The notes: generated by a model not told the origin, from the sequence alone. A DNA stretch of 64,000 nt from Maridesulfovibrio sp. (GCF_963677005.1 NZ_OY781616.1:2040766-2104765), one strand, 5' to 3'; shown: positions 37,901-52,646, counted from the stretch's first letter. A program made the numbers and translations.

Positions 37901-37959
37901 GTTGCCTGTACCAGGCCAAAAACGAAGGCCGTAACAGAGTGGTCAGCAGGTGCGATTGA
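34942..37959 (+). CDS. Cytoplasmic multi-sensor diguanylate cyclase (PAS-PAS-GAF-PAS-PAS-PAS-GGDEF)
   Basis: The GGDEF active site is RIGGEEFAAV, with the RxxD-type region upstream. The GAF segment is NVPLFDGDSIVLLAGVGNK. There are several PAS/PAC repeats. The ORF has a TTG start, and a GTG at 34951 is an alternative. Confidence 0.9.
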   Translation: MDKVKTLFETNEVCRKFMDASPDAIVITAPNGDLLAYNDNAKELFGYGSEDSVPSNVLEYYEEPDKRGDLLSILEDSGKVSGFETVLHTRNGKNIIACVNVSVFEQSGHKVHIAIIRDISARRKAEEQLMASEKKFSSLFDSSSDAILLLDEDGRITECNKQAEKLFFSSKGRLLNTCFMDLSPRLQPGGCVSSELFFSSMADVLEGKGQRFLWQFRLKGGTLVDCNVSLTSVEVGNSKIVMCVAADLSEQQNLMMKGRLDEIRFEALSSISRMVDASLPSIYDYALEAAVSVTESEIGYIYFVNDDETELTIHAWSEGVMPQCSVNNPQYTYRVEDTGIWGDAIRLRQPVITNDYENCAGKKGLPKGHIQIKRHMNVPLFDGDSIVLLAGVGNKENDYTNEDVRQLTMLMEGMWNVVRRKQADEALREAYAGMEIEVFERTEKLSEALAGLKRKNEEISREIKSRRAAEKQLRINAGRLALATRSGKLGVWEWEIASGKLIWNERMFEIYRCRRDRFSGTYTAWMKMIHPDDLAGLEIALSDAIENNGHFEWEFRIIRPEGKTRYLKASGLTMEDPGGRPQSVIGITQDITDQRELEEQLRRYERVIAVTPDLIFLVNADYEYVMVNDSYAKAFGYSPDYFIGRHVQEFIGHDLFKECFSPRIDMAFAGRPQSHETWINLPAAGRRFFSLTYQMIDSIDKKGRLIAVAAHDITAVKLAEEDRKNIFEVSLDLLSIADFKGRFLELNPSWHKTLGWSEDDLKGRSWIDFTHPDDRERSLISMESLMEGIEVRDSESRFRDKDGNWRWISWSLHPDKERGKITAVARDVSEQKSMVEELKRLASTDPLTGASNRRFFLERAREEIDRFKRYGGSLFFMMLDIDHFKLINDTYGHEVGDRVLQELVKCSRKTLRTSDVFGRIGGEEFAAVLVQGDMDSARQVAERLRTTLGDMKIRCGKNIVKFTVSIGLTCIPSESPTIEEAMKQADRCLYQAKNEGRNRVVSRCD

Positions 37960-38786: not shown

Positions 38787-39263
38787 TTGAAGAACAGATA
38801 TATACCCATAACACTTATCGTCGCTGTATGCCTCATTGCTGCTGCGGCCGGATTTCTCTTCCCGCCATCAGAACCGGAAACCCCGGTTCGAGTTGTGTTG
38901 GACAACAGCGGCGGAAGAGTAATCTTCACCCACGTTACCCACACAGAAGATTTCGGCTACGAATGCTCCGACTGTCACCATGACGAGATCGGACAGGACA
39001 AGCCTCTTCCGTGCGGCTCATGTCACCCCAAGGCGTTTGATGAAAAATTCCGCAAGGCACACCAGAAGAACTTCGCGAACACCGAAGCCTGCCTTCGCTG
39101 CCATGAAAATGTTCCCACCGGTCCCCTTGCCGAAGAGGACAGGCCGGATACCGAAAATATTCCTTTACGGTCTGAGGCCTTCCACACCCAGTGCATGAGC
39201 TGTCATGAAAACGATGGCGGTCCCTACGGCGAAAACTCCTGTTACACGTGCCACGCGAGGTAG
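38787..39263 (+). CDS. Membrane-anchored or periplasmic multiheme cytochrome c (five CxxCH motifs), first gene of the rnf cluster
   Basis: The signal/anchor segment is IPITLIVAVCLIAAAAGFLF. The heme motifs are CSDCH, CGSCH, CLRCH, CMSCH and CYTCH. TTG start with AAGGA upstream. Confidence 0.85.
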   Translation: MKNRYIPITLIVAVCLIAAAAGFLFPPSEPETPVRVVLDNSGGRVIFTHVTHTEDFGYECSDCHHDEIGQDKPLPCGSCHPKAFDEKFRKAHQKNFANTEACLRCHENVPTGPLAEEDRPDTENIPLRSEAFHTQCMSCHENDGGPYGENSCYTCHAR

Positions 39264-39268
39264 TTTAG

Positions 39269-40408
39269 ATGCTCAAGATTCATTATTCATTGGAATCAGA
39301 TGCCAGAGACGCCATCAGCGAAATATCCGCGCCGGCAGAACTGAACATCCGGGTGCGCAACCTCGTCCTGAACACCAAAAAGGGACAGAGCCTTGCCCGT
39401 GGCGACATGATCGCCGAGCACCCTTCAAAATACGGTGGAGCCTACCATGCGTCAGCGTCCGGCAAGGTTTCCAAAATAAATTATCATAACATGACCATCC
39501 AGTGCGATGCGGCCGGAACCGCTGTCGAGCCTCTGGATGTGCAGTCCATGGGCCCGGGCAAGGATCTGCTGCGCACACTGCAGGGACTGGGGATTGATAC
39601 GGCTCCCCTGGCCTCAAGCAGCGAAAGGCTGGTCATCAACGGTCTCAATCCCGAACCGGGAATCACTGTGGCCGAGGTTCTCCTTGAAACTGAAAAAGAT
39701 GTGATCGAGACAGGTCTGCGCATAGCCCAGTCCATGATCACCCCTGTGCAGACGGTGCTGGCGGTAGCTTCCGGAACATCCTATTCCCTTACCGGTGCGG
39801 AAACATTCTTCATAAAACCGAAATATCCGCGTTCTCTGGACGCATTGGTTGTGAAAAAAATAACAGGGAAGGAATTCCCGGCCGACACCAAAGTGATCAG
39901 CGTGATGGACCTCTACAACATCGGTCTCGCCGCAGAAAGCGGACTTCCGGTGACCGATACGCTGATGACCGTCAACAAGCGCAATTACCGCGTCCCGCTC
40001 GGAACACCGATCAGCCACCTGCTTAACGAACTGGATCTGCCCGTAAAGTCAGGAGACAAGGTTGTACTGGGCGGCCCCTTCCGCGGGGAAGCTGTCTACA
40101 GTCTGGATGAAGGTGTAAAAAAGGGAGACTACGGCCTGTTTGTCATCACAGCCGGAGCGTTTCCATCCATTGAGGATGCCACCTGCATAAACTGCGGAGA
40201 GTGTGTGCTCAGCTGTCCCGGCCGCCTGCAGCCGAATTTGCTCAGCCGTTACGCAGAATATGAAATGTTCGACAAGGCCGAGCAGCACCATCTGAACAGC
40301 TGTTTCGAGTGCGGGCTGTGTTCCTTCAACTGTACGGTTCGAAGACCTATTCTGCAGTACATCCGCTTTGCAAAGGATCAGCTCCGGGCCAGCGGACATT
40401 CAGAGTAG
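39269..40408 (+). CDS. rnfC: RnfC-like subunit (short form; 2x[4Fe-4S] retained, flavin/NADH motifs not visible)
   Basis: The two ferredoxin motifs CINCGECVLSCP and CFECGLCSFNCT are present, and the overall layout is collinear with RsxC. GLGIDTAPL replaces GLGGAGFP, and INGLNPEP replaces INAAECEP. Confidence 0.8.
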   Translation: MLKIHYSLESDARDAISEISAPAELNIRVRNLVLNTKKGQSLARGDMIAEHPSKYGGAYHASASGKVSKINYHNMTIQCDAAGTAVEPLDVQSMGPGKDLLRTLQGLGIDTAPLASSSERLVINGLNPEPGITVAEVLLETEKDVIETGLRIAQSMITPVQTVLAVASGTSYSLTGAETFFIKPKYPRSLDALVVKKITGKEFPADTKVISVMDLYNIGLAAESGLPVTDTLMTVNKRNYRVPLGTPISHLLNELDLPVKSGDKVVLGGPFRGEAVYSLDEGVKKGDYGLFVITAGAFPSIEDATCINCGECVLSCPGRLQPNLLSRYAEYEMFDKAEQHHLNSCFECGLCSFNCTVRRPILQYIRFAKDQLRASGHSE

Positions 40409-40592
40409 GCTCAAGACAGCCTGCCGGGCATGAAAATGCCTCACAGGCACTTTCGTTGACGGCCACGGGGAAAGCCCCATGGATATCCCTGAATAGAGGG
40501 ACGCCGGAATACCAGGCCTCCGCTATTGATTGGACAATCATACAGGGACAAACCGGACGAACAATAAAAACCAAAGTTTCAAGGGTTTACAT

Positions 40593-41564
40593 ATGACTCC
40601 TCCAGTAATCAAAGCAATGTCCGACATTTCGGTCAGACTTACGGTCTCGCCCGCTCCGCACTGGCGCAGCAGACGAACCGTAACGAAGATGATGCAGTAC
40701 CATCTTCTGGCGCTGCTCCCCGCTCTGCTAGCGGCATTCAACATGTACGGCCTGCCGGCTCTTGCCACGGCAGGAACTGCCGGTGCCGTTGCAGTACTTA
40801 CAGAGATCCTCTGTCTGAAAATGCAGGATCGGGACATAAACGTTGATAACTTCACCGCCCTATACGAAGGGCTGCTCTTCGCCTTTCTGCTGCCTGCCAC
40901 CGCGCCGTGGTGGATGGTGGCCTGCGGAGCGGCAATCACCATCGTACTCGGCCGCACAGTCTTCGGCGGGTTCGGAACCAATCCGGTCTGTGCCCCGCTT
41001 GTGGCATGGGCTTTCTGCCGCGTCTCCTGGCCTGCCGCCATGGACATAGACCTCAACCTGGCAACATTCGCCATCAACGCTCCGCTTGACCAGCTTAAGC
41101 ACTTCGGAATCGATTCGCTCGGACAGTTCGACTATACGGACCTGTTCCTCGGCCGTCAGCTCGGAGGGTTCGGAGCTTCGCAGATCATAGCCGTGCTGGC
41201 CGGGGGAATTTTCCTCGTAGCCACCGGATGGGTTCGCATATTCATTCCTGCTGCGTTTCTGATCGGTGTTGCCGCTACAGCATCTATCTTCTGGATGATC
41301 AATCCCGAAATGTACGCCGACCCGCTCTTCCACCTGCTGACCGGTTCGGTCATGTTCGGGGCCTTCTTCCTGGCGCCGGACGTGGCATCGTGCCCGGTAG
41401 GCATCATTCCGCAGGTCCTTTACGGGCTCATCGCCGGGATCATGGTCATCATCATCAGGGTCTACGGCATCTACCCCGACGGCGTTCCCTTTGCCATCAT
41501 GGTGGCAAACATCCTGACTCCCCTGCTCGACCGGGTGCGTCCCAAACCTTTCGGAGGCAGATAA
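40593..41564 (+). CDS. rnfD: RnfD membrane subunit
   Basis: The start is at 40593 (MTPPVIKAM...SPAPHW). NqrB/RnfD-type segments are present (GFGTNPVCAPL, YPDGVPFAIMVANILTPLLD). Confidence 0.9.
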   Translation: MTPPVIKAMSDISVRLTVSPAPHWRSRRTVTKMMQYHLLALLPALLAAFNMYGLPALATAGTAGAVAVLTEILCLKMQDRDINVDNFTALYEGLLFAFLLPATAPWWMVACGAAITIVLGRTVFGGFGTNPVCAPLVAWAFCRVSWPAAMDIDLNLATFAINAPLDQLKHFGIDSLGQFDYTDLFLGRQLGGFGASQIIAVLAGGIFLVATGWVRIFIPAAFLIGVAATASIFWMINPEMYADPLFHLLTGSVMFGAFFLAPDVASCPVGIIPQVLYGLIAGIMVIIIRVYGIYPDGVPFAIMVANILTPLLDRVRPKPFGGR

Positions 41565-41567
41565 ACC

Positions 41568-42137
41568 ATGCGCGAAATAATTCATATGATCGTGGTTCTC
41601 TCCATCATCTGCGCCACATCCGGAGCAGTACTGGTCAACCTCAAGCAGGCGACCAAAGGACAGATAGAACAGCAGGTTCTGACCTATGTACAGGGCCCGG
41701 CTCTTCTTTCGGTTCTTGAAAACCGCGACAACGACCCCATCAAGGAACGCATGACCATCAAAGACGTCACCGTATTTCCGGCCATGAAAGACGGAAAACT
41801 GGTCGGCGTGGCTCTTGAATCCTTTGCCCCCGGTTATTCCGGAGATATCGGAGTCATGGTCGGATTCGATGTGAACAAGGATGAGCTTCTCGGAATAGGG
41901 ATCACCACCCAGACGGAGACTCCCGGACTTGGAACCCGCGTTACCGAACCGTCATTCACTGGCAGGTTCAAAGGACACGGACTGGGCTCCATGCAGCTGG
42001 TAGCCAAGGGCGGTGACATAGACTCGGTTGCCGGAGCCACCTACTCCTCCACCGGTACAGTGGACGCGGTACGCAAGGCTATTGAAATCTACCAGTCCAT
42101 CAAGCCGGAAATCAACCTGATCTGGAAGAAATCCTAA
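41568..42137 (+). CDS. rnfG: RnfG (periplasmic FMN-binding subunit)
   Basis: It has an N-terminal TM anchor, an FMN_bind-type segment TETPGLGTRV, and the flavinylation motif DSVAGATYSS. Confidence 0.9.
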   Translation: MREIIHMIVVLSIICATSGAVLVNLKQATKGQIEQQVLTYVQGPALLSVLENRDNDPIKERMTIKDVTVFPAMKDGKLVGVALESFAPGYSGDIGVMVGFDVNKDELLGIGITTQTETPGLGTRVTEPSFTGRFKGHGLGSMQLVAKGGDIDSVAGATYSSTGTVDAVRKAIEIYQSIKPEINLIWKKS

Positions 42138-42146
42138 GGAGATACC

Positions 42147-42833
42147 ATGAGCCGCTTAGTAAAAGAATTTGCAAAAGGACTCTGGGCCGAACTTCCTCCG
42201 TTCAGGGTTCTGCTGGGGCTCTGCCCCACGCTGGCCGTAACTTCCACTGCCGAAAACGGTCTTGGAATGGGCCTTGCGGTCGTATTCGTTCTGACCATGT
42301 CCAACCTGATCATCTCGGCGATCAGGAAAATCATACCTGCCAAGGTTCGCATAGCCTGCTTCATCGTTATCACGGCCTCGCTGGTCGTTGCCGTTGAACT
42401 GCTCATGCAGGCATATGTCTACCCGCTCTATCAGCGCCTCGGCATCTTTGTTCCACTGATCGTTGTAAACTGTCTGATACTGGGACGCGCGGAAGCCTTC
42501 GCTTCCAAAAACGGTGTGCTGCTGTCCATTGCCGATGCTCTGGGAATGGGACTCGGCTTCACCGCCTCGCTGACCTTTCTCGGTGCCATACGCGAAATCC
42601 TCGGAAGCGGAACGGTCTTCGGAGCGCAGGTCATGTGGTCCTCTTTCCAGCCGGCAGAGCTTATGGTCAAGGCACCGGGCGCTTTCGTAGCCCTGGGGGT
42701 CATCCTTGCCGGCATGAACGCCTTCAACAGGTACCAGAGCCGCAGAAAGGGCGAAACTCCGCCCGATGTGATGAATTCATCCTGCGCCGGCTGCGGAGCC
42801 TGCGGGGCAATCCAGAATCTCAAGGACAAGTAG
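42147..42833 (+). CDS. rnfE: RnfE membrane subunit with a Cys-rich C-terminal tail
   Basis: The N-terminus GLWAELPPFRVLLGLCPTLAVTSTAENGLGMG is typical of RnfE/NqrD. The tail is SSCAGCGACGAIQNLKDK. Confidence 0.9.
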   Translation: MSRLVKEFAKGLWAELPPFRVLLGLCPTLAVTSTAENGLGMGLAVVFVLTMSNLIISAIRKIIPAKVRIACFIVITASLVVAVELLMQAYVYPLYQRLGIFVPLIVVNCLILGRAEAFASKNGVLLSIADALGMGLGFTASLTFLGAIREILGSGTVFGAQVMWSSFQPAELMVKAPGAFVALGVILAGMNAFNRYQSRRKGETPPDVMNSSCAGCGACGAIQNLKDK

Positions 42834-42848
42834 GGGAGGACGCAGGAA

Positions 42849-43424
42849 ATGGAATACTTCATGCTTTTTATCTCCGCCATTTTTATCAACAACATCGTGT
42901 TGGTGCAGTACCTCGGGTCCTGTCCCTTCATGGGTACCTCCAAATCCACCGATGTTGCCATGGGAATGGGCGGAGCGGTCATATTCGTCATAATCATGGC
43001 TACCGCCATCACCTGGCCCCTGCAGCAGTATGTGCTGGTGCCTTTCGGCATCGAATACCTGCAGACCATCGTCTTCATTCTGGTCATTGCCTCGCTTGTC
43101 CAGTTTGTCGAGATGTTCCTCAAAAAGGCCATACCGCCACTGTATAAATCCCTGGGCCTGTTCCTCCCGCTGATCACCACCAACTGTGCGGTGCTCGGCG
43201 TGGCTATCATGGTCCAGCGCAACGGCTACTCCTTCATCAAGTCGGTCATGTTCGGACTCGCTTCGGGCATAGGCTTCCTGATCGCTCTGGTCATTATTTC
43301 GTCAATCCGCGAACGACTGGATATCGCGCCGGTTCCGACTGTTTTCAGAGGCGTTCCCATCGCCCTGGTAACGGCAGGAATCATGTCCCTGGTGTTCTTC
43401 GCCTTCAAGGGCATGGCAGCTTAA
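42849..43424 (+). CDS. rnfA: RnfA membrane subunit
   Basis: 191-aa, 6-TM protein. FINNIVLVQYLGSCPFMG and PLITTNCAVLG are typical of RnfA/NqrE. Confidence 0.9.
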   Translation: MEYFMLFISAIFINNIVLVQYLGSCPFMGTSKSTDVAMGMGGAVIFVIIMATAITWPLQQYVLVPFGIEYLQTIVFILVIASLVQFVEMFLKKAIPPLYKSLGLFLPLITTNCAVLGVAIMVQRNGYSFIKSVMFGLASGIGFLIALVIISSIRERLDIAPVPTVFRGVPIALVTAGIMSLVFFAFKGMAA

Positions 43425-43449
43425 CCGGACAGTCAAGGAGAGAGATAAA

Positions 43450-45564
43450 ATGGTTACATCTTCTATTGTTATTCTGTTTCTGCTGGGATTCACAGCAGCA
43501 GGCATACTTGCGGCAGCATCCAAGGTTCTGCATGTCGAAGAAGACCCCCGCATAGCCAAAGTGGAAGGCTGCTTTCCGGGCGCCAACTGCGGAGGCTGCG
43601 GTTTCCCCGGTTGCTCAGCCGCTGCAGCGGCAGTGGTCAAGGGTGACGCCGAACCGGAAATCTGCGTTGCGGGCGGACCTGAAATAGCCCAGAACATAGC
43701 CGCCATCATGGGGGTTGAGGCAGCATTCAAGGAGCCCAAAGTTGCGGGTAACATCTGCACCGGCGGTTCCAGAGCCAACCTGCTCTTTGAATACGAAGGG
43801 GTGGAAGACTGCCGCGCGGAGGCCCTGCTTTACGGGGGGGAGAAAATATGCGGACTGGGCTGCATCGGAATGGGGTCCTGCGTCAAAGTGTGCTCTTTCG
43901 ACGCAATCCGCCTCAACGACGACGGCATCCCGGTCGTAGACATGAACGCCTGCCGCTCCTGCGGCAAATGCGCGGAAGTATGCCCCACCGGAGCCATCCG
44001 CATCAGCGGCATGACCATGGACCTGCTGCACCTCAACCAGATAGACGACTGCCTGGCTCCCTGCATGCAGAAATGTCCGGCCCAGATAGACGTCCGCACA
44101 TATATAAACCAGATGAAAAACGGCAACATGCGCGGTGCTCTTTTAACCATGAAAGAACGCAACCCGCTTCCGCTGGCAGTAGGCCGTCTCTGCCCTGCTC
44201 CCTGCGAAACAATCTGCCGCCGCAATATCGCCGATGACGGTGTTGCCATCCATACCCTGCACCGCTTTGTGGCCGACTGGGAAATGAACTCCGGTTCACG
44301 TATCAAGCTGGACTGCAACCCTCCGAGCGGACATAAGGTTGCGATCATCGGTTCCGGTCCTGCGGGACTTTCCTGCGCATACTTCCTGCGCCGCATAGGT
44401 CACGAGCCCTGCCTGTTCGAAAAGCGTGAGGCAATCGGCGGCATGATGAAAGGGATCATACCGGAATACCGTCTTCCGTCCAAAGTCGTGGACTGGGAAA
44501 TCCAGTCTATCCTTGATCTTGGTGTAGATGTAAAAACCGGCGTGGAATTCGGTAAGGACATCACGCTCAAGTCTCTGGAAGAGCAGGGATACGAAGCTGT
44601 TTTCATCGCCACCGGTGCATGGAAGGTTCCTGCACTGGGCATTGAAAACGATGATGCTGAAAATGTTTTAGACGCAATCTCGTTCCTGGAAAAAGTCGGC
44701 AGGGACATCACCGACCTCAAGGGTAAAAAACTTGTTGTTGTGGGTGAAACCAATACCGCAATGGATGTAGTGCGCAGTGCCGCACGCCTCGGCTGCGATG
44801 TAACCGCACTTATCGGATGCATTCAGCGCAAGATGTCCGCCAACAAGAACGAAGTTAAACGTGCTGCCGAACTCGGCGCAGACCTCATGTACCTTACCAG
44901 CCCGACCCGCGTTATTGCGGAAGACGGAAAGGTTACCGGGATTGAATTCTGCGAAGTTCAGTATGATGACCCCAAAAAGGCGGCAGGAACACCCAAGCCG
45001 GTCAGCGGCACTGAACGCATCATTGATGCGGACATAATCGTCACCGCAACCGACCGCACGGTGGACACCGCTCCGTTCAAGGATGAAAACGGCGATCCGC
45101 TTTTCAACCTGAATAAGAAGACAGGCGGAATCAAGGCAGACGGTTCTTCACTGCGTACCGACATACCAAACGTATTTGTCGGCGGTGAAGCGTACACAGG
45201 CCGCAGTATATTGATCCAGGCCGTGGCTGACGGAAGAAGAGCCGCACGGGCCATCCATCACTACGTGACCGAAGGCGACATTCCGGACCCGCAGAATCCG
45301 CAGCTCAGGGTTATTCCCGAGTCCATTCTCAAAAACATGGAAGTCACCTACACAATCCCAAGAATCAAGGTTCCCGAAATATCCGTAGAGGAACGCCGGA
45401 ACACATTCAAGGAAGAGGTCAAGGGATCCATTGTGTACGAAGCGGCCCGCAAGGAAGGAAGCCGTTGCCTGCGCTGCGGTCTGACCTGCTACGATGCCGA
45501 AGCCGGATCGGAATATGCCGCTGACGCAGACGTTCATAAATTCAGCGAACTTCATAATGATTAA
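43450..45564 (+). CDS. rnfB: RnfB fused to a GltD/NfnB/DsrL-like Fe-S flavoprotein module (704 aa)
   Basis: Residues 1 to about 195 form the RnfB part: a TM helix, NCGGCGFPGC, CGLGCIGMGSCVKVC and CRSCGKCAEVCP. Residues about 200-704 form the flavoprotein part: CLAPCMQKCP, RLCPAPCETICRR, the FAD fingerprint VAIIGSGPAGLSCAYFL, GGMMKGIIPEYRLP, VVVGETNTAMD, and the C-terminal CLRCGLTC. Confidence 0.85.
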   Translation: MVTSSIVILFLLGFTAAGILAAASKVLHVEEDPRIAKVEGCFPGANCGGCGFPGCSAAAAAVVKGDAEPEICVAGGPEIAQNIAAIMGVEAAFKEPKVAGNICTGGSRANLLFEYEGVEDCRAEALLYGGEKICGLGCIGMGSCVKVCSFDAIRLNDDGIPVVDMNACRSCGKCAEVCPTGAIRISGMTMDLLHLNQIDDCLAPCMQKCPAQIDVRTYINQMKNGNMRGALLTMKERNPLPLAVGRLCPAPCETICRRNIADDGVAIHTLHRFVADWEMNSGSRIKLDCNPPSGHKVAIIGSGPAGLSCAYFLRRIGHEPCLFEKREAIGGMMKGIIPEYRLPSKVVDWEIQSILDLGVDVKTGVEFGKDITLKSLEEQGYEAVFIATGAWKVPALGIENDDAENVLDAISFLEKVGRDITDLKGKKLVVVGETNTAMDVVRSAARLGCDVTALIGCIQRKMSANKNEVKRAAELGADLMYLTSPTRVIAEDGKVTGIEFCEVQYDDPKKAAGTPKPVSGTERIIDADIIVTATDRTVDTAPFKDENGDPLFNLNKKTGGIKADGSSLRTDIPNVFVGGEAYTGRSILIQAVADGRRAARAIHHYVTEGDIPDPQNPQLRVIPESILKNMEVTYTIPRIKVPEISVEERRNTFKEEVKGSIVYEAARKEGSRCLRCGLTCYDAEAGSEYAADADVHKFSELHND

Positions 45565-46531
45565 TCCACTTAATGCGACCTTCAATAGACGTTTATTCGT
45601 CAAGGCGATAAGTGCCACGGGATTCGGGGCGGCCCTTGCGGCCACCCCGGTCTCCGCGGCCATGCGCATAGCCGATATCTTACGCATCGGAGGCCGCAGC
45701 AGCGAGATCAGCCGGACCCGTTTCATAATGGGTACGGACGTCACCATATCAGCCGTACATGAATCGGCCGAGGAAGCCGCCAAGGGAATTCAGGCCGCCT
45801 TTGACGAAATGGAAAGGCTGGCCGCTCTGTTTGACCGTCGCAATACCGATTCCGAGATATCAAGGCTCAACAGGACCGGCAGGCTGGACAACCCCTCTCC
45901 GGAATTTGTCGAATTGATTGACCATGCCAGATCCCACTATCTGCGCTCCAACGGAGTATTTGATCCTACCGTCCCCGCAGAACAGGTGACACAGGAAACA
46001 CAACCCGACAGGTCTGCTCATTTTTCCGCAGCCATCAGGAAAAACGGAAATGAAATGCGACTTGAAAGCAAAGACGTGCAGATCAATCTGGACGGCATAG
46101 GAAGAGGATACATTGTTGACCGGGCATCGGAAATGCTGTCGTCCCTGGGCATTGAAAACCATCTGGTCAACGCAGGCAGCGACATCCGCGCAAAAGGCGA
46201 AAGGACTCCCGGACAGCCATGGATAGTTGCCATAACCGGACCGTGGAAAAAGGAATATTTTCAGGCTGTCATAACGCTCAAGGACGCGGCTGTATCCACT
46301 TCGGGAGGGAAAACCTTCGTAAACGAAAAATCCGCTCAGCCCTGGGCAAGCGTATCTGTAACCGCCCCCACATCAGCCGAAGCGGACGCGCTTTCGACCG
46401 CAGCTTTCCTAATGGATACCCGCAAGGCGGAACTTTTCATCAACGGCCAGAAAAACTGCGGCGGCCTCATGCTAGCGCAGGACGGCAAAAAAACATTTTC
46501 GCGCAGCTGGCAGAAGCTGGTAGGCATTTAG
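45557..46531 (+). CDS. apbE: ApbE-type FAD:protein FMN transferase with a Tat-like signal
   Basis: The ATG at 45557 overlaps the rnfB stop. The signal segment is RRLFVKAISATGFGAALAATPVSA. ApbE segments are present: FDPTV, LDGIGRGYIVD, VNAGSD, VSTSGG and AEADALSTAAF. Confidence 0.85.
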   Translation: MINPLNATFNRRLFVKAISATGFGAALAATPVSAAMRIADILRIGGRSSEISRTRFIMGTDVTISAVHESAEEAAKGIQAAFDEMERLAALFDRRNTDSEISRLNRTGRLDNPSPEFVELIDHARSHYLRSNGVFDPTVPAEQVTQETQPDRSAHFSAAIRKNGNEMRLESKDVQINLDGIGRGYIVDRASEMLSSLGIENHLVNAGSDIRAKGERTPGQPWIVAITGPWKKEYFQAVITLKDAAVSTSGGKTFVNEKSAQPWASVSVTAPTSAEADALSTAAFLMDTRKAELFINGQKNCGGLMLAQDGKKTFSRSWQKLVGI

Positions 46532-46749: not shown

Positions 46750-48435
46750 TCACTCTTCCTGGCCGCTTACGTTTTCACTGTCGCTGCACAGAACCAGTTT
46801 TTCGGCTTCATTTCCGGGCATCGGCCGGCCCAGATAAAATCCCTGTACCGTGTCGCAGCCCAGCTCGCGAAGTATGGCAAGCTGGTTTCCGGTTTCCACT
46901 CCTTCCGCAACCGCTTTCATTCCCAATCCGTGGGCCAGCGATATTATGGAGTCCACAAGCTGCTTTCCATCGCCGCCGGATTCCAGTCCGTCAATAAAAC
47001 TCTTGTCGATCTTCAGGCTTCTTGCCGGGAAAGTACTCAGATATGCCAGCGAAGAATAGCCGGTACCGAAATCATCTATGGAACAATGCACCCCAAGAGC
47101 CAGAAGAGACCTGAGCTTGGCTGCGGCCAACCCCGGATCAGCCACAAAAGCGGACTCCGTCAGCTCTATGTATAGACTTCCCGGAGGTATCCCGTTTCTC
47201 TCTATGGTCTCGGAGACATACTTCACAAGCGCCGGTTCCGTAATGTTCTTCGCGCTCATGTTGACGGAAAGATGCAGTCCCCGACAAACTCCGCTTACAC
47301 TCATGCACGCGGACCACATGGAGCAGGCCTTTTCCATTACATGACGATCCAGTCTGACGATAAGTCCGGTCTCTTCCGCCATGGGAATGAATTCCGCAGG
47401 ACTGACCAATCCTCTCTCAGGATGGTGCCAACGCACCAGAGCCTCGAATCCGATGAGGAAAATCCCGCCCTGTATATCATACTGCGGCTGATACACCACC
47501 TCGAACTGATCATGCTGCAAAGCCGCGTTGAAGTCGCTTTCAAACTGAATGATATCCAAAGAGGACGCATACATGGACCTGGTGAACACCGAAAGGATAT
47601 TCTTACCGCGCTGTTTCGATCTGCGCATGGCTATATTGGCGCGGTTGATGATTTCATCCGGCCCCAGTTCCTCATCATTTCCCCGGTGAATGTACATGCC
47701 GTAACTGACATCCAGCTTGAACTCGACACCGCCTATTTCATAAGGTCTGCTTAATTTTTCCCTGATTTCAGTCAGCCTTGCCAGACTCCGGCATGAATCA
47801 ATATCCCGAAGCAGGATTACGAAATCATCACCGCCGATCCTGCAGACAACGGAATTCCTGCCTGCCGCCTCGGAGAGTCTGGACGATATATCCACGAGCA
47901 CATTGTCCCCGGTATAGTGGCCGAAGCTGTCATTGACCCGTTTGAAATTAAGCATATCCAGAAAAACAACGCTGTAGCGCCGGGAAGGATCTTCCTTGCA
48001 GCAGTCCATGGCCGACTGTATCTGTTCAGTCAGCATTCGCCGGTTGGGAAGGCCGGTCATGTAATCACGGTATGCCATACGTTTGAGGGCTTCGCGTGAT
48101 TTCAAAAGATTCCCGAAGACACGGACAGTGAGATAGGCGGTGGCAAAGACGAAAATACTGCCAAGGCAGAGTATGGGCCCGAAAATTGAATTGAAATCAA
48201 AACGGTAGTGGAAAGTCTCACCCATCAGGACTATCGAATACCCGGCCACGAAGGAGGCGATCAGCCCGATGAGAAGGAAAAAACTCTTACGTACCCGGCG
48301 GTACAGTAAAGGCTCTTTTGTGCGCAGCATGCCGATCTGGCGGATATAAACCCATATTCCGCTCAAAAGCAGGATCAGTCCGCTGGAAAGGCAGGCAAAA
48401 AAAATCGCATGGTCAGGTTCATTCAAATTATGCAT
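46750..48435 (-). CDS. Membrane-bound GGDEF-EAL protein (c-di-GMP turnover)
   Basis: There are about four N-terminal TM segments. The GGDEF motif is [10 protein letters not shown]. The EAL domain has FEALVRW and [10 protein letters not shown]. Confidence 0.9.
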
Positions 48436-49964: not shown

Positions 49965-52646
49965 ATGAAATTCAGGATATTTCATGGTTCAGTAAGAAAG
50001 AAACTGGTCTTTCTGGTACTGCTGGCAACTCTCCCCGCGTTCATGCTCAATTTCGGCACGGAATGGGAAAAGCGCCAAAAAACACTTGATACTCTCAAAC
50101 TTGATACAACAATTTATTTGAACAGCTTCAGTCATGTCCAGCAGAGAATCACCGATTCCACCAAAACGCTGCTCCAGACAGTAGCAGCCATGCCTGCAGT
50201 AAAAAAAATGGAACGGGATACAATCCATGAAATCCTGACAACCATTCTGCAGGAAAATCCGATGTTCACAAACGTCATCCTGGTAGATACCAAGGGAGAT
50301 GTAGTAACAGCGGGCAGGGACACCGACGAGGCCAGACAGTTTAATTTTTCAGACCGCAAACAGTTCAGGGAAGCACTGCAGACAGGCTCATTTTCTGCAG
50401 GACAGTTCATGGTGGGAAAACAGACCAGAATGTCCATTTTTCCATTTGCCATGCCTATCACAACATATGAAGGCACCTATGCAGGAGTCATGCTTATAGG
50501 TGTAAGTCTTGATGACTACAGCAGACTTTTCGATGAATGCTCTTTCCAGTCAGGACTTTTCTTCGGGGCCTGTGATGCATATGGAATAAGAATTTTCAGG
50601 CACCCCATGCCGAAAGGCCTTTCCATAGGACAACCCATTCAAAAAACAATTTTCGATCAGGCCCGGGCGGCGAAGGGCAGTTCTACCATGGAACTGAAAG
50701 ATTCGTCCGGAGTGGACAGGATAATCGCTTCGACCCCGTTACGGCTGACACCTGACAGCGAGCCGTACATGTACATGTTCATGGGACGGGATTCTTCTGC
50801 TGCGCTGAGCAATACCGACTCAGTGCTGATACGCGGGCTGCTCACAACTTTTGCATCTCTCACACTGGCACTGCTGATAGCATGGTTTGTAGGAGGGCGG
50901 GGAATTGCCGGAAATCTGGAACGAATGGCTGTTATAGCCCATAATCTAGGCAGCGATAAACCTATCCCCCCAAGCAATATAGATTATGACGACGGTGAAA
51001 TAGGATACCTTGCCCGAACATGGGACAATATGATCGCCATGCTCAATAAAAGGGAAAAAGAAAAAAACGAAGCCCTTGCCCAACTCTCCGAAAGCGAAGA
51101 AAGGCACAGAATCATACTTGAGCACAATCCCGGAGGGATAGCGCTCATAAATCCAGACACACTGGAAATACTGTTCGCCAATCCGGCTTTTATGACTCTT
51201 TTCGAGATAGCGACAACCTCTCTGTCCACAGTAACGCTATGCGATCTGCACCCGAGTAAAGACTGTCCACGAGTACGCGAAGAGTTGAACAGGCACCTGC
51301 GTTCCGGGGGCGGAACAACGCAGGAAATGGCATTCAGGACCTTGAACGGAAAAATTGTGCTGACGGATTTCAGTACCGCAGTGCTCACACTCATCGGCAA
51401 AACATATCTGGCCGGATTTTTCACCGACATAACGGAACGCAAAAATTCCGAACACGAACTGCTGACGGCAAAGGAAATGGCGGAGCGGGCCAATGTGGTC
51501 AAGGATGATTTTCTGGCCAATATAAGCCACGAACTGCGGACTCCCCTGAACGGAGTAATGGGCATGCTGCAACTGCTGGAACTTTCCGACCTGAGTGAAG
51601 GCCAGGCCGGCTATGTGGATATCGCCCTTAAGTCGTCAAACAGCCTGCGCAGAGTTATTGACGATCTGCTCGATTTTACCAAGATAGAAGCCGGCATGCT
51701 TGATATCCGGGAGGAACCTTTCGACCTTGAAAACCTCCTGCGCCAATGCGTGGATCTCCTTCGTGTTCAGGCAGATGAAAAAGGATTGCAGCTTACATGG
51801 AATGTGCATCCGGGTACGAATAAAAAATTTCTCGGCGATACCGGCAGGCTGCGGCAGATTCTCTTTAACCTGCTCGGCAATGCCATAAAATTCACTGAAA
51901 CGGGCTTGATTTCAATTGAATCGTTTACACTCCCATCTCCTGAAGAATCACGTGAAAGGCTGTTCCTTTCCGTAACGGATACAGGGGTAGGTATCCCCGA
52001 CGACAGAATAAAAGACATTTTCGAGTCCTTCACACAGGTGGACGGGTCCAGAACGCGCAAATATCAGGGAGTCGGTCTCGGGCTATCCATAGTCAAAAGA
52101 CTGGTGTCCCTGATGAACGGGAGTATGACAATTGAAAGTGAACCGGGCATGGGAACCAGAGTACAGTTCTGCGTATCCGTGGGTAGCTGTATACAGGTTG
52201 AAGACACAGATGAAGAAGAGCCCTTGTCCGGCCATTTAGACAGAAAGCTGAAACTGCTGCTGGTGGAAGATGAGAAGGTAAACATGTTCATGGCCAAACA
52301 TATTCTGGAAAAAATGGGTCATGATGTAGACTGCGCTGAAAACGGCAGACAGTGTCTGGCCCAGATCGCCAGACAGCCGTATGATGCCGTGCTTATGGAT
52401 ATCCAGATGCCGGAAATGACCGGCATAGAAGCCACCAGACGCATACGTTTCGCTTCGGAATTTGAAAGCGTTTCCTCCATCCCTATCATAGCATTATCCG
52501 CTCATGCGACCAGTTCGGATGTTGAGGCTGCAATGCGAGCCGGGGTAAATGAATATATTACCAAACCCTTCGAACGCGCACGGCTGGAAGAAGCCCTTCA
52601 GAAAATTGGAAGCAACCTCAACTTTTCCAGAACCGACAACGGATAA
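49965..52646 (+). CDS. Hybrid sensor histidine kinase (periplasmic Cache-like domain, HAMP, PAS, HisKA-HATPase, REC)
   Basis: Two TM segments flank a periplasmic domain of about 270 aa. The H-box is FLANISHELRTPLNGVMGML, the G-boxes are DTGVGIP and GVGLGLSIV, and the receiver has LMDIQMPEMTG. Confidence 0.9.
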   Translation: MKFRIFHGSVRKKLVFLVLLATLPAFMLNFGTEWEKRQKTLDTLKLDTTIYLNSFSHVQQRITDSTKTLLQTVAAMPAVKKMERDTIHEILTTILQENPMFTNVILVDTKGDVVTAGRDTDEARQFNFSDRKQFREALQTGSFSAGQFMVGKQTRMSIFPFAMPITTYEGTYAGVMLIGVSLDDYSRLFDECSFQSGLFFGACDAYGIRIFRHPMPKGLSIGQPIQKTIFDQARAAKGSSTMELKDSSGVDRIIASTPLRLTPDSEPYMYMFMGRDSSAALSNTDSVLIRGLLTTFASLTLALLIAWFVGGRGIAGNLERMAVIAHNLGSDKPIPPSNIDYDDGEIGYLARTWDNMIAMLNKREKEKNEALAQLSESEERHRIILEHNPGGIALINPDTLEILFANPAFMTLFEIATTSLSTVTLCDLHPSKDCPRVREELNRHLRSGGGTTQEMAFRTLNGKIVLTDFSTAVLTLIGKTYLAGFFTDITERKNSEHELLTAKEMAERANVVKDDFLANISHELRTPLNGVMGMLQLLELSDLSEGQAGYVDIALKSSNSLRRVIDDLLDFTKIEAGMLDIREEPFDLENLLRQCVDLLRVQADEKGLQLTWNVHPGTNKKFLGDTGRLRQILFNLLGNAIKFTETGLISIESFTLPSPEESRERLFLSVTDTGVGIPDDRIKDIFESFTQVDGSRTRKYQGVGLGLSIVKRLVSLMNGSMTIESEPGMGTRVQFCVSVGSCIQVEDTDEEEPLSGHLDRKLKLLLVEDEKVNMFMAKHILEKMGHDVDCAENGRQCLAQIARQPYDAVLMDIQMPEMTGIEATRRIRFASEFESVSSIPIIALSAHATSSDVEAAMRAGVNEYITKPFERARLEEALQKIGSNLNFSRTDNG

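Follow-up and report, generated by a model that had tools for sequence, protein, structure and literature searches.

The RnfB subunits of canonical Rnf complexes, as represented by A. woodii (9eri_B), C. tetanomorphum (7zc6_B) and E. coli (RsxB), carry an N-terminal transmembrane helix, a PF04060 cluster and two [4Fe-4S] clusters. Ordinary RnfB proteins either end at about 190 aa or, as in sister Desulfovibrionales operons, continue with ferredoxin-like domains to 270-340 aa, and Rnf complexes with an extension-free RnfB of the E. coli type are functional. In Methanosarcina acetivorans, a cytochrome c is co-transcribed with rnf, the complex works without NAD(P), and RnfG-FMN has been proposed as the cytochrome donor (PMC4023990). 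Na+-NQR arose by replacement of RnfB with an FAD/NADH subunit, while its RnfC homologue (NqrA) lost the NAD/FMN sites (PMC4014512). The NfnL-like domain of NfnA/StnC, in turn, contains an FAD that serves as a non-bifurcating NADPH entry site (PMC10482914, PMC12018979). A protein joining RnfB to a flavoprotein module has been noticed in print, where it was read as loss of rnfB and its replacement by an FAD-dependent oxidoreductase (PMC11434368).

In the 64,000-nucleotide stretch of DNA analysed here (the window), which belongs to a marine sulfate reducer (Maridesulfovibrio sp.), such a protein is encoded by a single 704-aa ORF at 43450..45564 (+ strand), which starts with an ATG a few bases 3' of a Shine-Dalgarno-like AAGGAGAGAG and contains no internal stop. 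The in-frame RnfB-GltD-like fusion proposed by the first-pass annotation, which was made from the sequence alone, is borne out by Pfam, NCBIfam, homologues, structure matches and an AlphaFold2 model. The domains were delimited as PF04060 FeS (residues 43-73, 42.7 bits, cutoff 23), a Fer4 dicluster (138-184), PF14691 Fer4_20 (202-281, 68.5 bits, cutoff 25.8) and PF07992 Pyr_redox_2 (296-584, 85.6 bits), and TIGR01944 rnfB scored 73.7 bits, above its cutoff of 68.7. The best NCBIfam match, NF009410 (PRK12771, NAD(P)-binding protein subfamily; residues 201-700), did not reach its curated cutoff (439.4 vs 516 bits). According to the model, which is confident (mean pLDDT 87.2, pTM 0.85), and the alignments, the RnfB core is followed by two [4Fe-4S] clusters, an FAD domain, a degenerate NADPH Rossmann domain and a Cys-bearing C-terminal extension. 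A protein identical to the window fusion is present in public data, and of the best 120 matches at least 116 are homologues that measure about 700 aa (695-715 aa) at full length; they originate from independent Desulfovibrionales isolates and MAGs, with several of the genomes being complete or closed. Residue conservation is continuous across the junction of the two parts, representative proteins align without a break over residues 1-300, and neither a separate gene start nor an RBS was found at the junction. The fusion is thus genuine and not an assembly artefact. It is the standard form in marine Desulfovibrionaceae, as the first-pass annotation had allowed for; the published reading of it is mistaken, as rnfB is not lost from these genomes.

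The RnfB core (residues 1-185, 43450..44004, +) was assigned by its invariant Cys and by alignment to solved RnfB, namely 9eri_B (query 8-184, E 2.8e-44) and 7zc6_B (query 12-190, E 1.5e-42). As in canonical RnfB, a transmembrane helix is found at the N-terminus (residues 2-26 in the AlphaFold2 model), and the gene is the final one after rnfA in a cytochrome-rnfCDGEAB operon. All four Cys of the [4Fe-4S] motif (C47/C50/C55/C72) are invariant, further invariant Cys occupy positions 103/121/134/138/144/148, and CxxCxxCxxxCP lies at 168-178 (116 homologues); the short RnfB of the sister operons has an identical core layout. At the junction (residues 186-200, 44005..44049, +, ...MTMDLLHLNQIDD), the short RnfBs depart into a second Fer4 domain, whereas the fusion continues with about 520 aa of flavoprotein in place of the polyferredoxin extension of ordinary RnfB. 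The junction segment LLHLN...DC is kept in both of the fusion clades described below and matches residues 85-100 of NfnA/StnC.

NfnA/StnC also gave the best sequence matches to the module as a whole (9bov_A, 9n5u_A and 8oh5_C; E 1.5e-99 to 2.1e-85, residues 183-695), and the best fold matches are likewise to the NfnL-like domain of these proteins. The initial description of a GltD/NfnB/DsrL-like module therefore stands with regard to the GltD/NfnL-type family, but the closest relative is the NfnL-like domain of NfnA/StnC and not GltD or DsrL. Bfu-type NfnA/StnC shares with the fusion two [4Fe-4S] clusters and an FAD domain, the unusual H...CxxxCxxxCP motif at the N-terminus and a C-terminal RCLxCG extension. 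In the soluble Bfu complex, the module resides inside a NuoG/FdhF-like subunit that docks on HydBC-like NfnBC/StnAB, whereas here it sits behind a membrane-anchored RnfB core, and no NuoG/FdhF-like domain was detected in the fusion protein with Pfam or NCBIfam.

The Fer4_20 domain (PF14691; 44050..44292, +) carries Cys 201/205/209 and 248/252/256, which are invariant among the fusion homologues. The FAD-proximal [4Fe-4S] cluster of StnC has a Lys ligand, K170 (K165 in Tsi NfnA) (PMC10482914); the window protein has no Lys at this fourth-ligand position, residue 271, which is a His. The N-terminal part of the FAD-binding domain (44335..44742, +) is marked by the motifs GSGPAG, FE, GG, IPEYRLP and ATGAW. 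Both clades share invariant G301, G303, G306, G330, G331, R341, G389 and A390, and the FAD fingerprint recognised at the outset (GSGPAG 301-306, FE324, GG330-331, R341) is confirmed as invariant or nearly so. R341 corresponds to R239 of StnC. The C-terminal part of the FAD domain (VFVGGEAYTGR...ADGRRAAR; 45172..45270, +) reads GE for canonical GD and TGR for TGP. It is followed by the C-terminal extension (residues 608-685, 45271..45504, +; pLDDT 81-93) that ends with RCLRCGLTC, whose C673, C676 and C680 do not vary within either clade; the translation places the CLRCGLTC reported earlier at 45466-45489. An equivalent extension is present in NfnA/StnC, as 9bov_A, 9n5u_A and 8oh5_C align through query residues ~679-695, and residues 636-677 align weakly (E 0.2) with the N-terminal leader and RCLSCG of E. 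coli GltD. Because the segment resembles the canonical GltD/NfnL N-terminal leader with its RCLxCG, the CxxCxxxC most likely constitutes an Fe-S ligand segment. The thiol/disulfide-type module considered in the first-pass annotation did not hold up, as the fusion homologues contain no conserved redox-active Cys pair.

The second Rossmann domain of the window protein lacks the GxGxxA fingerprint for NAD(P)H and reads GETNTAMD instead (44743..44766, +), in agreement with the broken fingerprint seen at first, with N435, A437, M438 and D439 being retained. Further downstream (44809..44841, +), LIGCIQRKMSA takes the place of canonical xYRR[T/S]xxEMPA, and the basic YRR pair after beta-2 is absent from the window protein (IGC at residues 455-457); this Arg pair would be expected to bind the 2'-phosphate of NADPH. 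The fusions split into two paralogous clades, each closing its own cytochrome-rnfCDGEA-rnfB operon. Clade B combines GGGNTAID, YRR, K271, GGD, AIGQ and TGP with a decaheme cytochrome; clade A, to which the window protein belongs, combines Gx[T/S]NxA, absence of RR, H/Q/E at 271, GGE, R536 and R585 with a pentaheme cytochrome, and the motif states are perfectly correlated within clades (clade A n=71, clade B n=42). Position 434, the second Gly, is T in 42, S in 28 and G in 1 of the 71 clade A proteins, and position 433 is D/E in 53/71, compared with GGG in 42/42 of clade B and in the solved relatives. RR occurs in 42/42 clade B proteins and YRR in the solved 9bov, 9n5u and 8oh5, while both Arg are lost in every clade A member, and the beta-2 end carries no conserved acidic residue of the kind expected for NADH. 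Residue 271 varies in clade A (H 29, Q 19, E 19, L 3, M 1) and is K in 42/42 of clade B. Three further positions distinguish the clades: 536 (R in 71/71 vs Q in 42/42), 580 (E in 59/71 vs D in 42/42) and 585 (R in 71/71 vs P in 41/42). Clade B fusions thus resemble StnC in having the Lys ligand and a full NADPH site, whereas the window clade deviates at the Lys ligand as well as at the NADPH fingerprint and the RR pair. Since the clade B motif states recur in the solved NADPH-binding relatives, they are ancestral, and the broken fingerprint, judged from these alignments, is a derived, clade-wide state and not a peculiarity of the window gene.

Sequence constraint differs along the protein. Mean pairwise identity of the NADPH domain is 0.48 in clade A vs 0.66 in clade B, a drop seen in clade A only, whereas the RnfB core, the Fe-S domain and the N-terminal FAD domain reach 0.65-0.70 in clade A and 0.65-0.71 in clade B. 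The C-terminal FAD part is lower in both (0.55 and 0.62), and the C-terminal extension shows the reverse order (0.60 in clade A vs 0.49 in clade B).

The operon reads cytochrome-rnfC-D-G-E-A-B-apbE (38787-46531). Its first gene (38787..39263, +) encodes a membrane-anchored periplasmic cytochrome c (Pfam Cytochrom_CIII) with an N-terminal hydrophobic segment and five CxxCH at residues 60, 76, 102, 136 and 152, matching the pentaheme cytochrome predicted beforehand; its sequence can be aligned with two parts of the sister-operon decahemes, the N-terminal one with hemes 1-3 and the C-terminal one with hemes 9-10. RnfC (39269..40408, +) retains two [4Fe-4S] motifs, CINCGECVLSCP and CFECGLCSFNC, but has no FMN/NADH site as judged from profile scores and alignment: Complex1_51K scores 21.5 bits, under the 31.2 cutoff (E. 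coli RsxC, 164 bits), a 12-aa gap removes the GLGGAGFPT loop, AECEP is changed to LNPEP and YPSGGAKQL to YPRSLDALV. RnfD (40530..41564, +; PF03116, 296.8 bits) lacks the Thr for FMN attachment, as SQAT187PLD of E. coli and TTATPL of A. woodii align to INAPLD, and the D..[ST][GSA]A[TS] motif is absent throughout the window RnfD; its true start may lie downstream of the TTG at 40530, given that residue 38 is the first one covered by the Pfam match. RnfG (41568..42137, +; NF045876 RnfG_DVU2794, 279 bits, cutoff 205) keeps an intact flavinylation motif, DSVAGAT. RnfE (42147..42833, +; PF02508 212 bits, TIGR01948 244 bits) has two Cys, in LGLCPTL and VVNCLILG, which we take to occupy the intramembrane [2Fe-2S]-binding positions of Nqr/Rnf structures, and RnfA (42849..43424, +; TIGR01943 260 bits, cutoff 229) has Cys in LGSCPFM and TTNCAVLG. 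The ApbE flavin transferase (rnfF; 45494..46531, +; PF02424, 158.7 bits) has an RR-containing, signal-like N-terminal region carrying NRRLFVKAISATGFGAALAATPVSAA, and its true start is probably an internal Met near 45557. Of 15 clade A-type operons inspected, 7 have ApbE on their 3' side. The neighbourhoods of these operons share no conserved partner gene, HydB/C-like genes included, and none of the latter kind lies in the window at ~35-52.6 kb.

The loss of the RnfC and RnfD flavin motifs was read correctly in the first-pass annotation, but the supposed correlation with the fusion was not borne out. The RnfC loop was deleted and the RnfD flavinylation motif absent in 67/67 sequences, with the RnfG motif kept, and the losses are found in each of the three Desulfovibrionales operon types, also where RnfB is of the ordinary 270-340-aa kind; as they are shared with the short-RnfB operons, they are not tied to the fusion. 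The cytochrome type tracks the operon, with 5 hemes accompanying clade A and 10 accompanying clade B as well as short RnfB. A tree from RnfC+D+G alone yields the same three operon types, and the gene order is the same in 65 further classifiable loci. Both paralogues occur together in many genomes, and this is very probably the case for the genome of the window, to which a clade B protein (P0278) is very probably assigned as the sister fusion paralogue.

Like NqrF of Na+-NQR, the fusion is a membrane-anchored Fe-S flavoprotein at the RnfB position that would feed the NqrD/E (RnfE/A) cluster, an analogy drawn loosely in PMC11434368. The flavin modules are not homologous: that of NqrF comprises an FNR/AMOr-type FAD-NADH domain and a plant-type [2Fe-2S], whereas the fusion protein gave no Pfam or NCBIfam match to a plant-type [2Fe-2S] or an FNR-like FAD/NADH domain, and the resemblance is functional and positional only. 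Moreover, quinone is the substrate that Na+-NQR reduces, and its NqrB still carries covalent FMN, while the window system keeps the RnfB Fe-S core and the RnfC Fe-S clusters, has an RnfD without flavinylation site, and has a periplasmic multiheme cytochrome as the likely partner. The rnf operon of M. acetivorans likewise includes a multiheme cytochrome c, but its RnfB is of the polyferredoxin type without a flavoprotein module, and lineage and cytochrome family are different.

We tentatively favor the explanation that the window fusion is the subunit through which electrons enter (or leave) a Desulfovibrionales-specific, cytochrome-c-linked Rnf on the cytoplasmic side, and that this fusion has lost its NAD(P)H site and exchanges electrons with a protein carrier. 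The sequences show the architecture, the paralogy and which motifs are kept or lost; cofactor content, electron path, direction, cytoplasmic partner and ion coupling are given below as we infer them. The general idea of a re-plumbed, cytochrome-linked Rnf, already put forward in the first-pass annotation, holds in view of the lost RnfC and RnfD flavin sites and the cytochrome in the operon. With RnfC lacking an FMN/NADH site and RnfD lacking covalent FMN, RnfB-RnfA/E-RnfG-cytochrome is the only intact redox path, and electrons would run from the RnfB Fe-S clusters via the intramembrane RnfA/E cluster and periplasmic RnfG-FMN to the multiheme cytochrome c encoded in the operon. Ancestrally, an NfnA/StnC-type module (FAD, NADPH site and two [4Fe-4S]) may have taken the place of the ferredoxin-like C-terminal extension of RnfB, a step that would have given RnfB an entry point for pyridine nucleotides of the kind that NqrF provides in Na+-NQR. 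Duplication of the entire operon would have followed, clade B (decaheme) retaining and clade A (pentaheme, window) losing the NADPH site. The window protein most likely binds FAD and two extra [4Fe-4S] without canonical NAD(P)H hydride uptake, and its motifs suggest that the clade A copy is probably independent of pyridine nucleotides. Our best guess is that clade A exchanges electrons with ferredoxin or flavodoxin, to or from the periplasmic cytochrome pool and with ion translocation, whereas the sister clade B complex would handle NADPH. As no partner gene is conserved beside the operon, the ferredoxin/flavodoxin proposal is reached only by elimination and analogy. Thioredoxin-reductase-like flavoenzymes of the FFTR/DDOR type have lost the GxGxxA/basic NADPH signature, keep FAD and receive electrons from a protein carrier. 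These enzymes have a TrxR fold with a CxxC active site, unlike the fusion with its lack of a conserved Cys pair, and the analogy would illustrate only that such a loss of the NADPH signature can be functional. Several observations speak against our explanation, among them the view in the literature of Desulfovibrio Rnf as a ferredoxin:NAD+ oxidoreductase. In D. alaskensis G20, a short-RnfB type, mutants in the co-transcribed decaheme cytochrome differ in phenotype from rnf mutants (PMC4215793), so that Rnf may not depend on the cytochrome as its partner; given an RnfD without covalent FMN, ion pumping itself is also uncertain.

Other objections come from the NADPH domain, which retains its Rossmann fold and is confidently modelled (pLDDT >90). 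The clade A module may still bind NAD(P)H in a non-canonical manner and operate as an NAD(P)H:cytochrome c oxidoreductase like its sister, perhaps with changed NADH/NADPH preference or affinity. N435, A437, M438 and D439 are kept, R460/K461 (RKMSANK; ~four residues downstream of the lost RR) are conserved in 56-57/71 clade A proteins and could still hold a phosphate, and one clade A member (L013) has an intact GxGxxA, GDGNSAMD. We nevertheless consider this unlikely in view of the replaced second Gly, frequently preceded by an acidic residue, the missing Arg pair with no acidic substitute for NADH, and the low conservation of the NADPH domain, the least conserved part of clade A; in addition, the new invariant Arg 536 and 585 together with acidic 433, 535 and 580 resemble remodelling or filling of the pocket. 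It is possible, though again doubtful, that this former nicotinamide pocket (R536, R585, E580, acidic 433/535) binds a substrate or protein partner other than NAD(P)H and is wired to the periplasmic cytochrome c pool. In the broadest form of this reading, every Desulfovibrionales Rnf, model strains included, would be cytochrome-linked and not a ferredoxin:NAD+ oxidoreductase, because RnfC cannot bind FMN/NADH.

The relaxed constraint on the NADPH domain and the loss of all nucleotide-binding hallmarks would also be compatible with a vestigial flavin/NADPH part, the FAD domain serving folding or stability in a plain ferredoxin:cytochrome c Rnf that relies on the RnfB core plus the additional Fe-S clusters; E. 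coli-type RnfB of ~190 aa does without any extension. Such a vestige is rather improbable, as over 70 diverged clade A lineages have kept the module at full length and its FAD motifs invariant, truncated clade A forms turned up only at contig ends, clade-specific residues (R536, R585, P394) are invariant, and the C-terminal extension is more conserved in clade A than in clade B.

Homology of the module to NfnL (4ylf_B, 5jca_L) raises the prospect that its FAD is a bifurcating or confurcating centre, as in NfnL of NfnSL, serving the RnfB chain and a second partner, e.g., the Fe-S clusters of the FMN-less RnfC, which otherwise have no obvious outlet. R341, near flavin N5, is invariant (StnC R239, NfnB R201), and Glu occupies the proximal-cluster ligand position in 19/71 clade A proteins, as in bifurcating NfnL (PMC10482914). 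We regard bifurcation as very unlikely, however: the FAD of the nearest solved relatives, NfnA/StnC, is non-bifurcating (PMC10482914, PMC12018979), an NfnS-like subunit is missing, clade A has a degenerate hydride-donor site, and position 271 is variable (H/Q/E/L/M), unlike a tuned bifurcation site. Finally, the formal possibility raised in the first-pass annotation, that a missed stop or frameshift joined rnfB to a downstream oxidoreductase gene during assembly, has practically no chance of being correct and is ruled out by the comparative data given above.

Taken together, RnfC lacks the FMN/NADH site in all of these operons, a flavoprotein is grafted on RnfB in the marine genera, and NADPH-competent and NADPH-degenerate paralogues go with different cytochromes, a pattern that offers testable assignments, i.e., NADPH:cytochrome c, ferredoxin (or other partner):cytochrome c, and ferredoxin:cytochrome c. 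It corrects the published reading of rnfB as lost from such genomes (PMC11434368) and would represent a second, independent case of the move that led from Rnf to Na+-NQR, in which the electron-entry subunit is swapped, here with the RnfB core still attached. Desulfovibrio needs Rnf to grow on H2, formate and ethanol (PMC4215793), and the wiring of the ion pump with the clade A fusion seems to depart from that of the textbook enzyme. If the remodelled pocket does bind a substrate or protein partner other than NAD(P)H, clade A would represent a new kind of respiratory enzyme that wires a cytoplasmic redox couple directly to periplasmic cytochrome c.

The gene at 43450-45564 (+) is translated as one ORF of 704 aa, a Shine-Dalgarno-like AAGGAGAGAG lies directly 5' of its ATG, and all motifs cited for it in the first-pass annotation were found at their expected positions. 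It stands seventh in a same-strand cluster headed by a cytochrome c gene (38787-39263, +) and continuing with rnfC (39269-40408, +), rnfD (40530-41564, +), rnfG (41568-42137, +), rnfE (42147-42833, +) and rnfA (42849-43424, +). Pfam places PF04060 at residues 43-73, a 4Fe-4S dicluster domain at 138-184, PF14691 (Fer4_20) at 202-281 and PF07992 at 296-584. The protein matches TIGR01944 (rnfB) above its cutoff, while the top NCBIfam match is NF009410 (PRK12771) over residues 201-700, with 439 bits below the cutoff of 516. The last gene of the cluster, apbE (45494-46531, +), shares 71 nt with the 3' end of the fusion ORF; its true start is therefore probably an internal Met near 45557, which leads into an RR-containing, signal-like segment, NRRLFVKAISATGFGAALAATPVSAA. 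Judged from the translations, large putative signalling proteins flank the operon: upstream one with a GGEEF motif (34942-37959, +, 1005 aa), and downstream a membrane protein of 561 aa that has GGDDF and an apparently EAL-like C-terminal domain (EALVRW; 46750-48435, -) and an apparent hybrid histidine kinase (49965-52646, +, 893 aa).

The in-frame junction between RnfB and flavoprotein, flagged in the first-pass annotation as a possible artefact, proved to be a shared feature. An identical protein is annotated in one Maridesulfovibrio sp. genome, and nearly all of the best 120 homologues, from Maridesulfovibrio, Pseudodesulfovibrio, Salidesulfovibrio, Desulfocurvibacter, Paucidesulfovibrio, Desulfobaculum and others, measure 695-715 aa, with conserved residues continuing across the junction in their alignment. 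Among 1.84 billion library representatives clustered at 50% identity, unbroken matches to residues 1-300 were limited to about a dozen clusters; the other best matches were ordinary RnfB proteins of 260-350 aa, aligned to residues 1-185 only. Misassembly or a frameshift is ruled out by the homologues of the same length and the continuous library matches. Because of these lengths, the conserved junction and the library matches, we regard the fusion as genuine, frequent among Desulfovibrionales and rare outside them. Short RnfB proteins share the first ~190 residues with the fusions and then carry a second ferredoxin-like domain, the place of which is taken by the flavoprotein module from about residue 186. 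RnfB may be fused to other modules elsewhere too: an RnfB-like core occurs at varied positions in the long proteins P0198 (736 aa, core at residues 464-648), P0230 (702 aa), P0176 (501 aa) and P0223 (436 aa).

The closest solved relatives of the module are 9bov_A (E 1.5e-99), 9n5u_A (NfnA of the T. sibiricus NfnABC complex, E 1.1e-93) and 8oh5_C (StnC of S. ovata, E 2.1e-85), whose alignments begin at query residue 183-188 and end at 679-695, so that the C-terminal RCLxCG is included; NfnL of NfnSL (~1e-62), DPD (1e-43) and GltD (1e-39) follow. An AlphaFold2 model of the fusion protein (mean pLDDT 87.2, pTM 0.85, low confidence only at residues 105-140) ranked the relatives in Foldseek as the sequence did, 9bov being the Caldicellulosiruptor saccharolyticus Nfn-ABC complex. 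The StnC/NfnA domain binds FAD and NADPH, its FAD is non-bifurcating, and a Lys, K170 or K165, ligates its proximal cluster (PMC10482914; PMC12018979).

A thiol/disulfide-type module had been considered in the first-pass annotation. That the C-terminal CxxCxxxC belongs to a thiol/disulfide oxidoreductase is unlikely, as the motif is common to the NADPH-dependent NfnA/StnC proteins and resembles the canonical N-terminal RCLxCG of GltD, a segment of Fe-S ligands, and no other conserved Cys pair was found in the flavin domains in an alignment of 116 fusion proteins. Residues 636-677 of this C-terminal extension bear a weak likeness to the E. coli GltD N-terminal leader with RCLSCG (E 0.2), and the N-terminal Fe-S motif of the module has three Cys only; we therefore infer that the C-terminal Cys triad serves in Fe-S ligation and not as a redox-active disulfide.

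Motif extraction from the 116 aligned full-length proteins split them cleanly into clade A (n=71, including the query) and clade B (n=42, about 47% identical to the query). The NAD(P)H fingerprint is GGGNTAID in clade B and G[D/E/G][T/S]N[T/S/A]AMD in clade A; the YRR[T/S]xxEMPA that follows beta-2 in clade B gives way in clade A to a conserved IQRKMSANK without RR. Position 271 is Lys in clade B and H/Q/E in clade A, the FAD motif reads GGD...TGP versus GGE...TGR, and the 533-536 region AIGQ versus A[T/L/V][D/E]R. Position 271 corresponds to the Lys ligand of the StnC/NfnA proximal cluster, which is thus kept in clade B and gone in clade A. As clade B shows the motif states of 9bov, 9n5u and 8oh5, the solved relatives that bind NADPH, this comparison marks clade B as keeping the ancestral state and clade A as derived. 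The FAD motifs (G301, G303, G306, GG330-331, R341, G389-A390, G579, G584) do not vary within or between the clades. In the NADPH domain, pairwise identity averages 0.48 in clade A vs 0.66 in clade B, whereas values are alike for the RnfB core, Fe-S domain and N-terminal FAD domain (0.65-0.70 in clade A, 0.65-0.71 in clade B); both clades drop over the C-terminal FAD portion (0.55 and 0.62), and the C-terminal extension is more conserved in clade A (0.60) than in clade B (0.49). These values argue that relaxation in clade A is confined to the NADPH domain.

Three proteins (P0070, P0071 and P0082, from loci L005, L020 and L032) are more degenerate still. They form a deep side branch of the fusions, with GDIHTAVD or GDSTTAFT as second Rossmann motif and with K or L at position 341, close to the flavin, where Arg is otherwise invariant. 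Besides, Pseudodesulfovibrio tunisiensis appears to hold three rnfB fusions (P0106, P0293 and P0027), a clade B pair and a single clade A copy, and further operon duplications therefore occur.

Complete cytochrome-rnfCDGEA operons end in clade B genes, and likewise in other clade A genes. A scan with an RnfG alignment, taking one genome per species, yielded 80 loci, all from Desulfovibrionales, to which operon types were assigned by script. Type I (~24 loci, among them Bilophila, D. piger, Mailhella, Oleidesulfovibrio and Halodesulfovibrio) combines a short RnfB of 273-337 aa with a decaheme cytochrome, type II (~23 loci) a clade B fusion with a decaheme cytochrome, and type III (~19 loci plus the window) a clade A fusion with a pentaheme cytochrome of ~160 aa. 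Heme number tracks the kind of RnfB strictly, with five motifs for clade A, ten for clade B and short RnfB, and six for the side branch within type III. ApbE is encoded downstream of type I and many type III operons and almost never after type II; no conserved partner gene beyond ApbE, itself present at 7/15 loci, adjoins the type III operons. Since a neighbour-joining tree of RnfC+RnfD+RnfG, with RnfB left out, recovered the same three groups, the types are whole-operon paralogues. Types II and III occur together in many genomes, and the genome of the window very probably holds P0278, a clade B protein with all canonical motifs, beside the clade A protein studied here, since each is encoded on a contig of identical length (4,258,610 bp).

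The motif losses in RnfC and RnfD that the first-pass annotation had tied to the fusion are real, but the tie does not hold: they are lineage-wide and occur in all three operon types, including those with short RnfB. With Complex1_51K, E. coli RsxC scores 164 bits over the full profile, while RnfC of types I, II and III reaches <=27 bits, under the 31.2 cutoff, with matches beginning only at profile position 17-29. In every aligned RnfC a 12-residue deletion takes out GLGGAGFPT, the FMN phosphate loop, AECEP has become LNPEP and YPSGGAKQL has become YPNSLDALV, and both [4Fe-4S] motifs are retained. The loop deletion was seen in the window (39269-40408), in L029, L065 and L067 and at 60+ further loci, including the short-RnfB operons of Oleidesulfovibrio, D. 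piger and Bilophila; the short-RnfB complexes of D. vulgaris and D. alaskensis likewise have an RnfC without this loop. Judged from these sequences, the deletion sits badly with the usual view, in which the Rnf of Desulfovibrio works through RnfC as a ferredoxin:NAD+ oxidoreductase. The D. piger RnfC (L067 5696-7039) matches PF24836, the second alpha/beta domain of NqrA, weakly (E 7e-4), which would fit the idea that these RnfCs drift towards an NqrA-like, cofactor-poor state. In RnfD, the flavinylated Thr (SQAT187PLD in E. coli, TTATPL in A. woodii) is absent, the window protein (40530-41564) reading INAPLD, and no flavinylation-type motif was found anywhere in 67/67 RnfD sequences of the lineage. 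The RnfG flavinylation motif is retained and an apbE gene is present. The pentaheme cytochrome (38787-39263) aligns to heme sites 1-3 and 9-10 of decaheme proteins (L001 4211-4948; L002 3809-4573) and thus looks like a DhcA-type decaheme protein minus the five middle heme sites.

From the pattern of kept and lost cofactor sites, we propose one continuous electron path, which would run from the cytoplasmic head through the RnfB clusters, RnfA/E and RnfG-FMN to the periplasmic cytochrome. In type II, an NADPH-competent FAD would be added at the cytoplasmic end, suggesting an NADPH:cytochrome c oxidoreductase. This would follow the logic of Na+-NQR, where RnfB gave way to an FAD/NADH subunit and the NAD/FMN sites disappeared from the RnfC homologue (PMC4014512). 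Type III, as in the window, would have retained FAD and clusters and lost the canonical NADPH site, although its module may retain residual, non-canonical NAD(P)H binding. As genomes typically hold types II and III together, without type I, we favour subfunctionalisation, whereby type II would take NADPH and type III would serve ferredoxin or flavodoxin as protein carrier, or another couple, with a different periplasmic cytochrome. Methanosarcina offers a precedent for an Rnf that is linked to a cytochrome and independent of NAD (PMC4023990); against the cytochrome link, a decaheme cytochrome mutant of D. alaskensis G20 had no rnf phenotype (PMC4215793). Ion coupling without RnfD-FMN is uncertain.

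In databases, the fused proteins carry the label FAD-dependent oxidoreductase or RnfB. Literature searches on RnfB fused to glutamate synthase/NfnB and on Pseudodesulfovibrio Rnf returned no description except a 2024 remark, in which rnfB was taken to be lost and replaced by an FAD-dependent oxidoreductase, the NQR analogy was drawn, and the retained RnfB core and the two paralogues were not recognised (PMC11434368). The literature searched, which also covered NADH binding by Desulfovibrio RnfC, yielded neither biochemical or structural work on fused RnfB nor a mention of the missing FMN loop. Through these operons, the long-standing question of the role of Rnf in sulfate reducers becomes directly testable.
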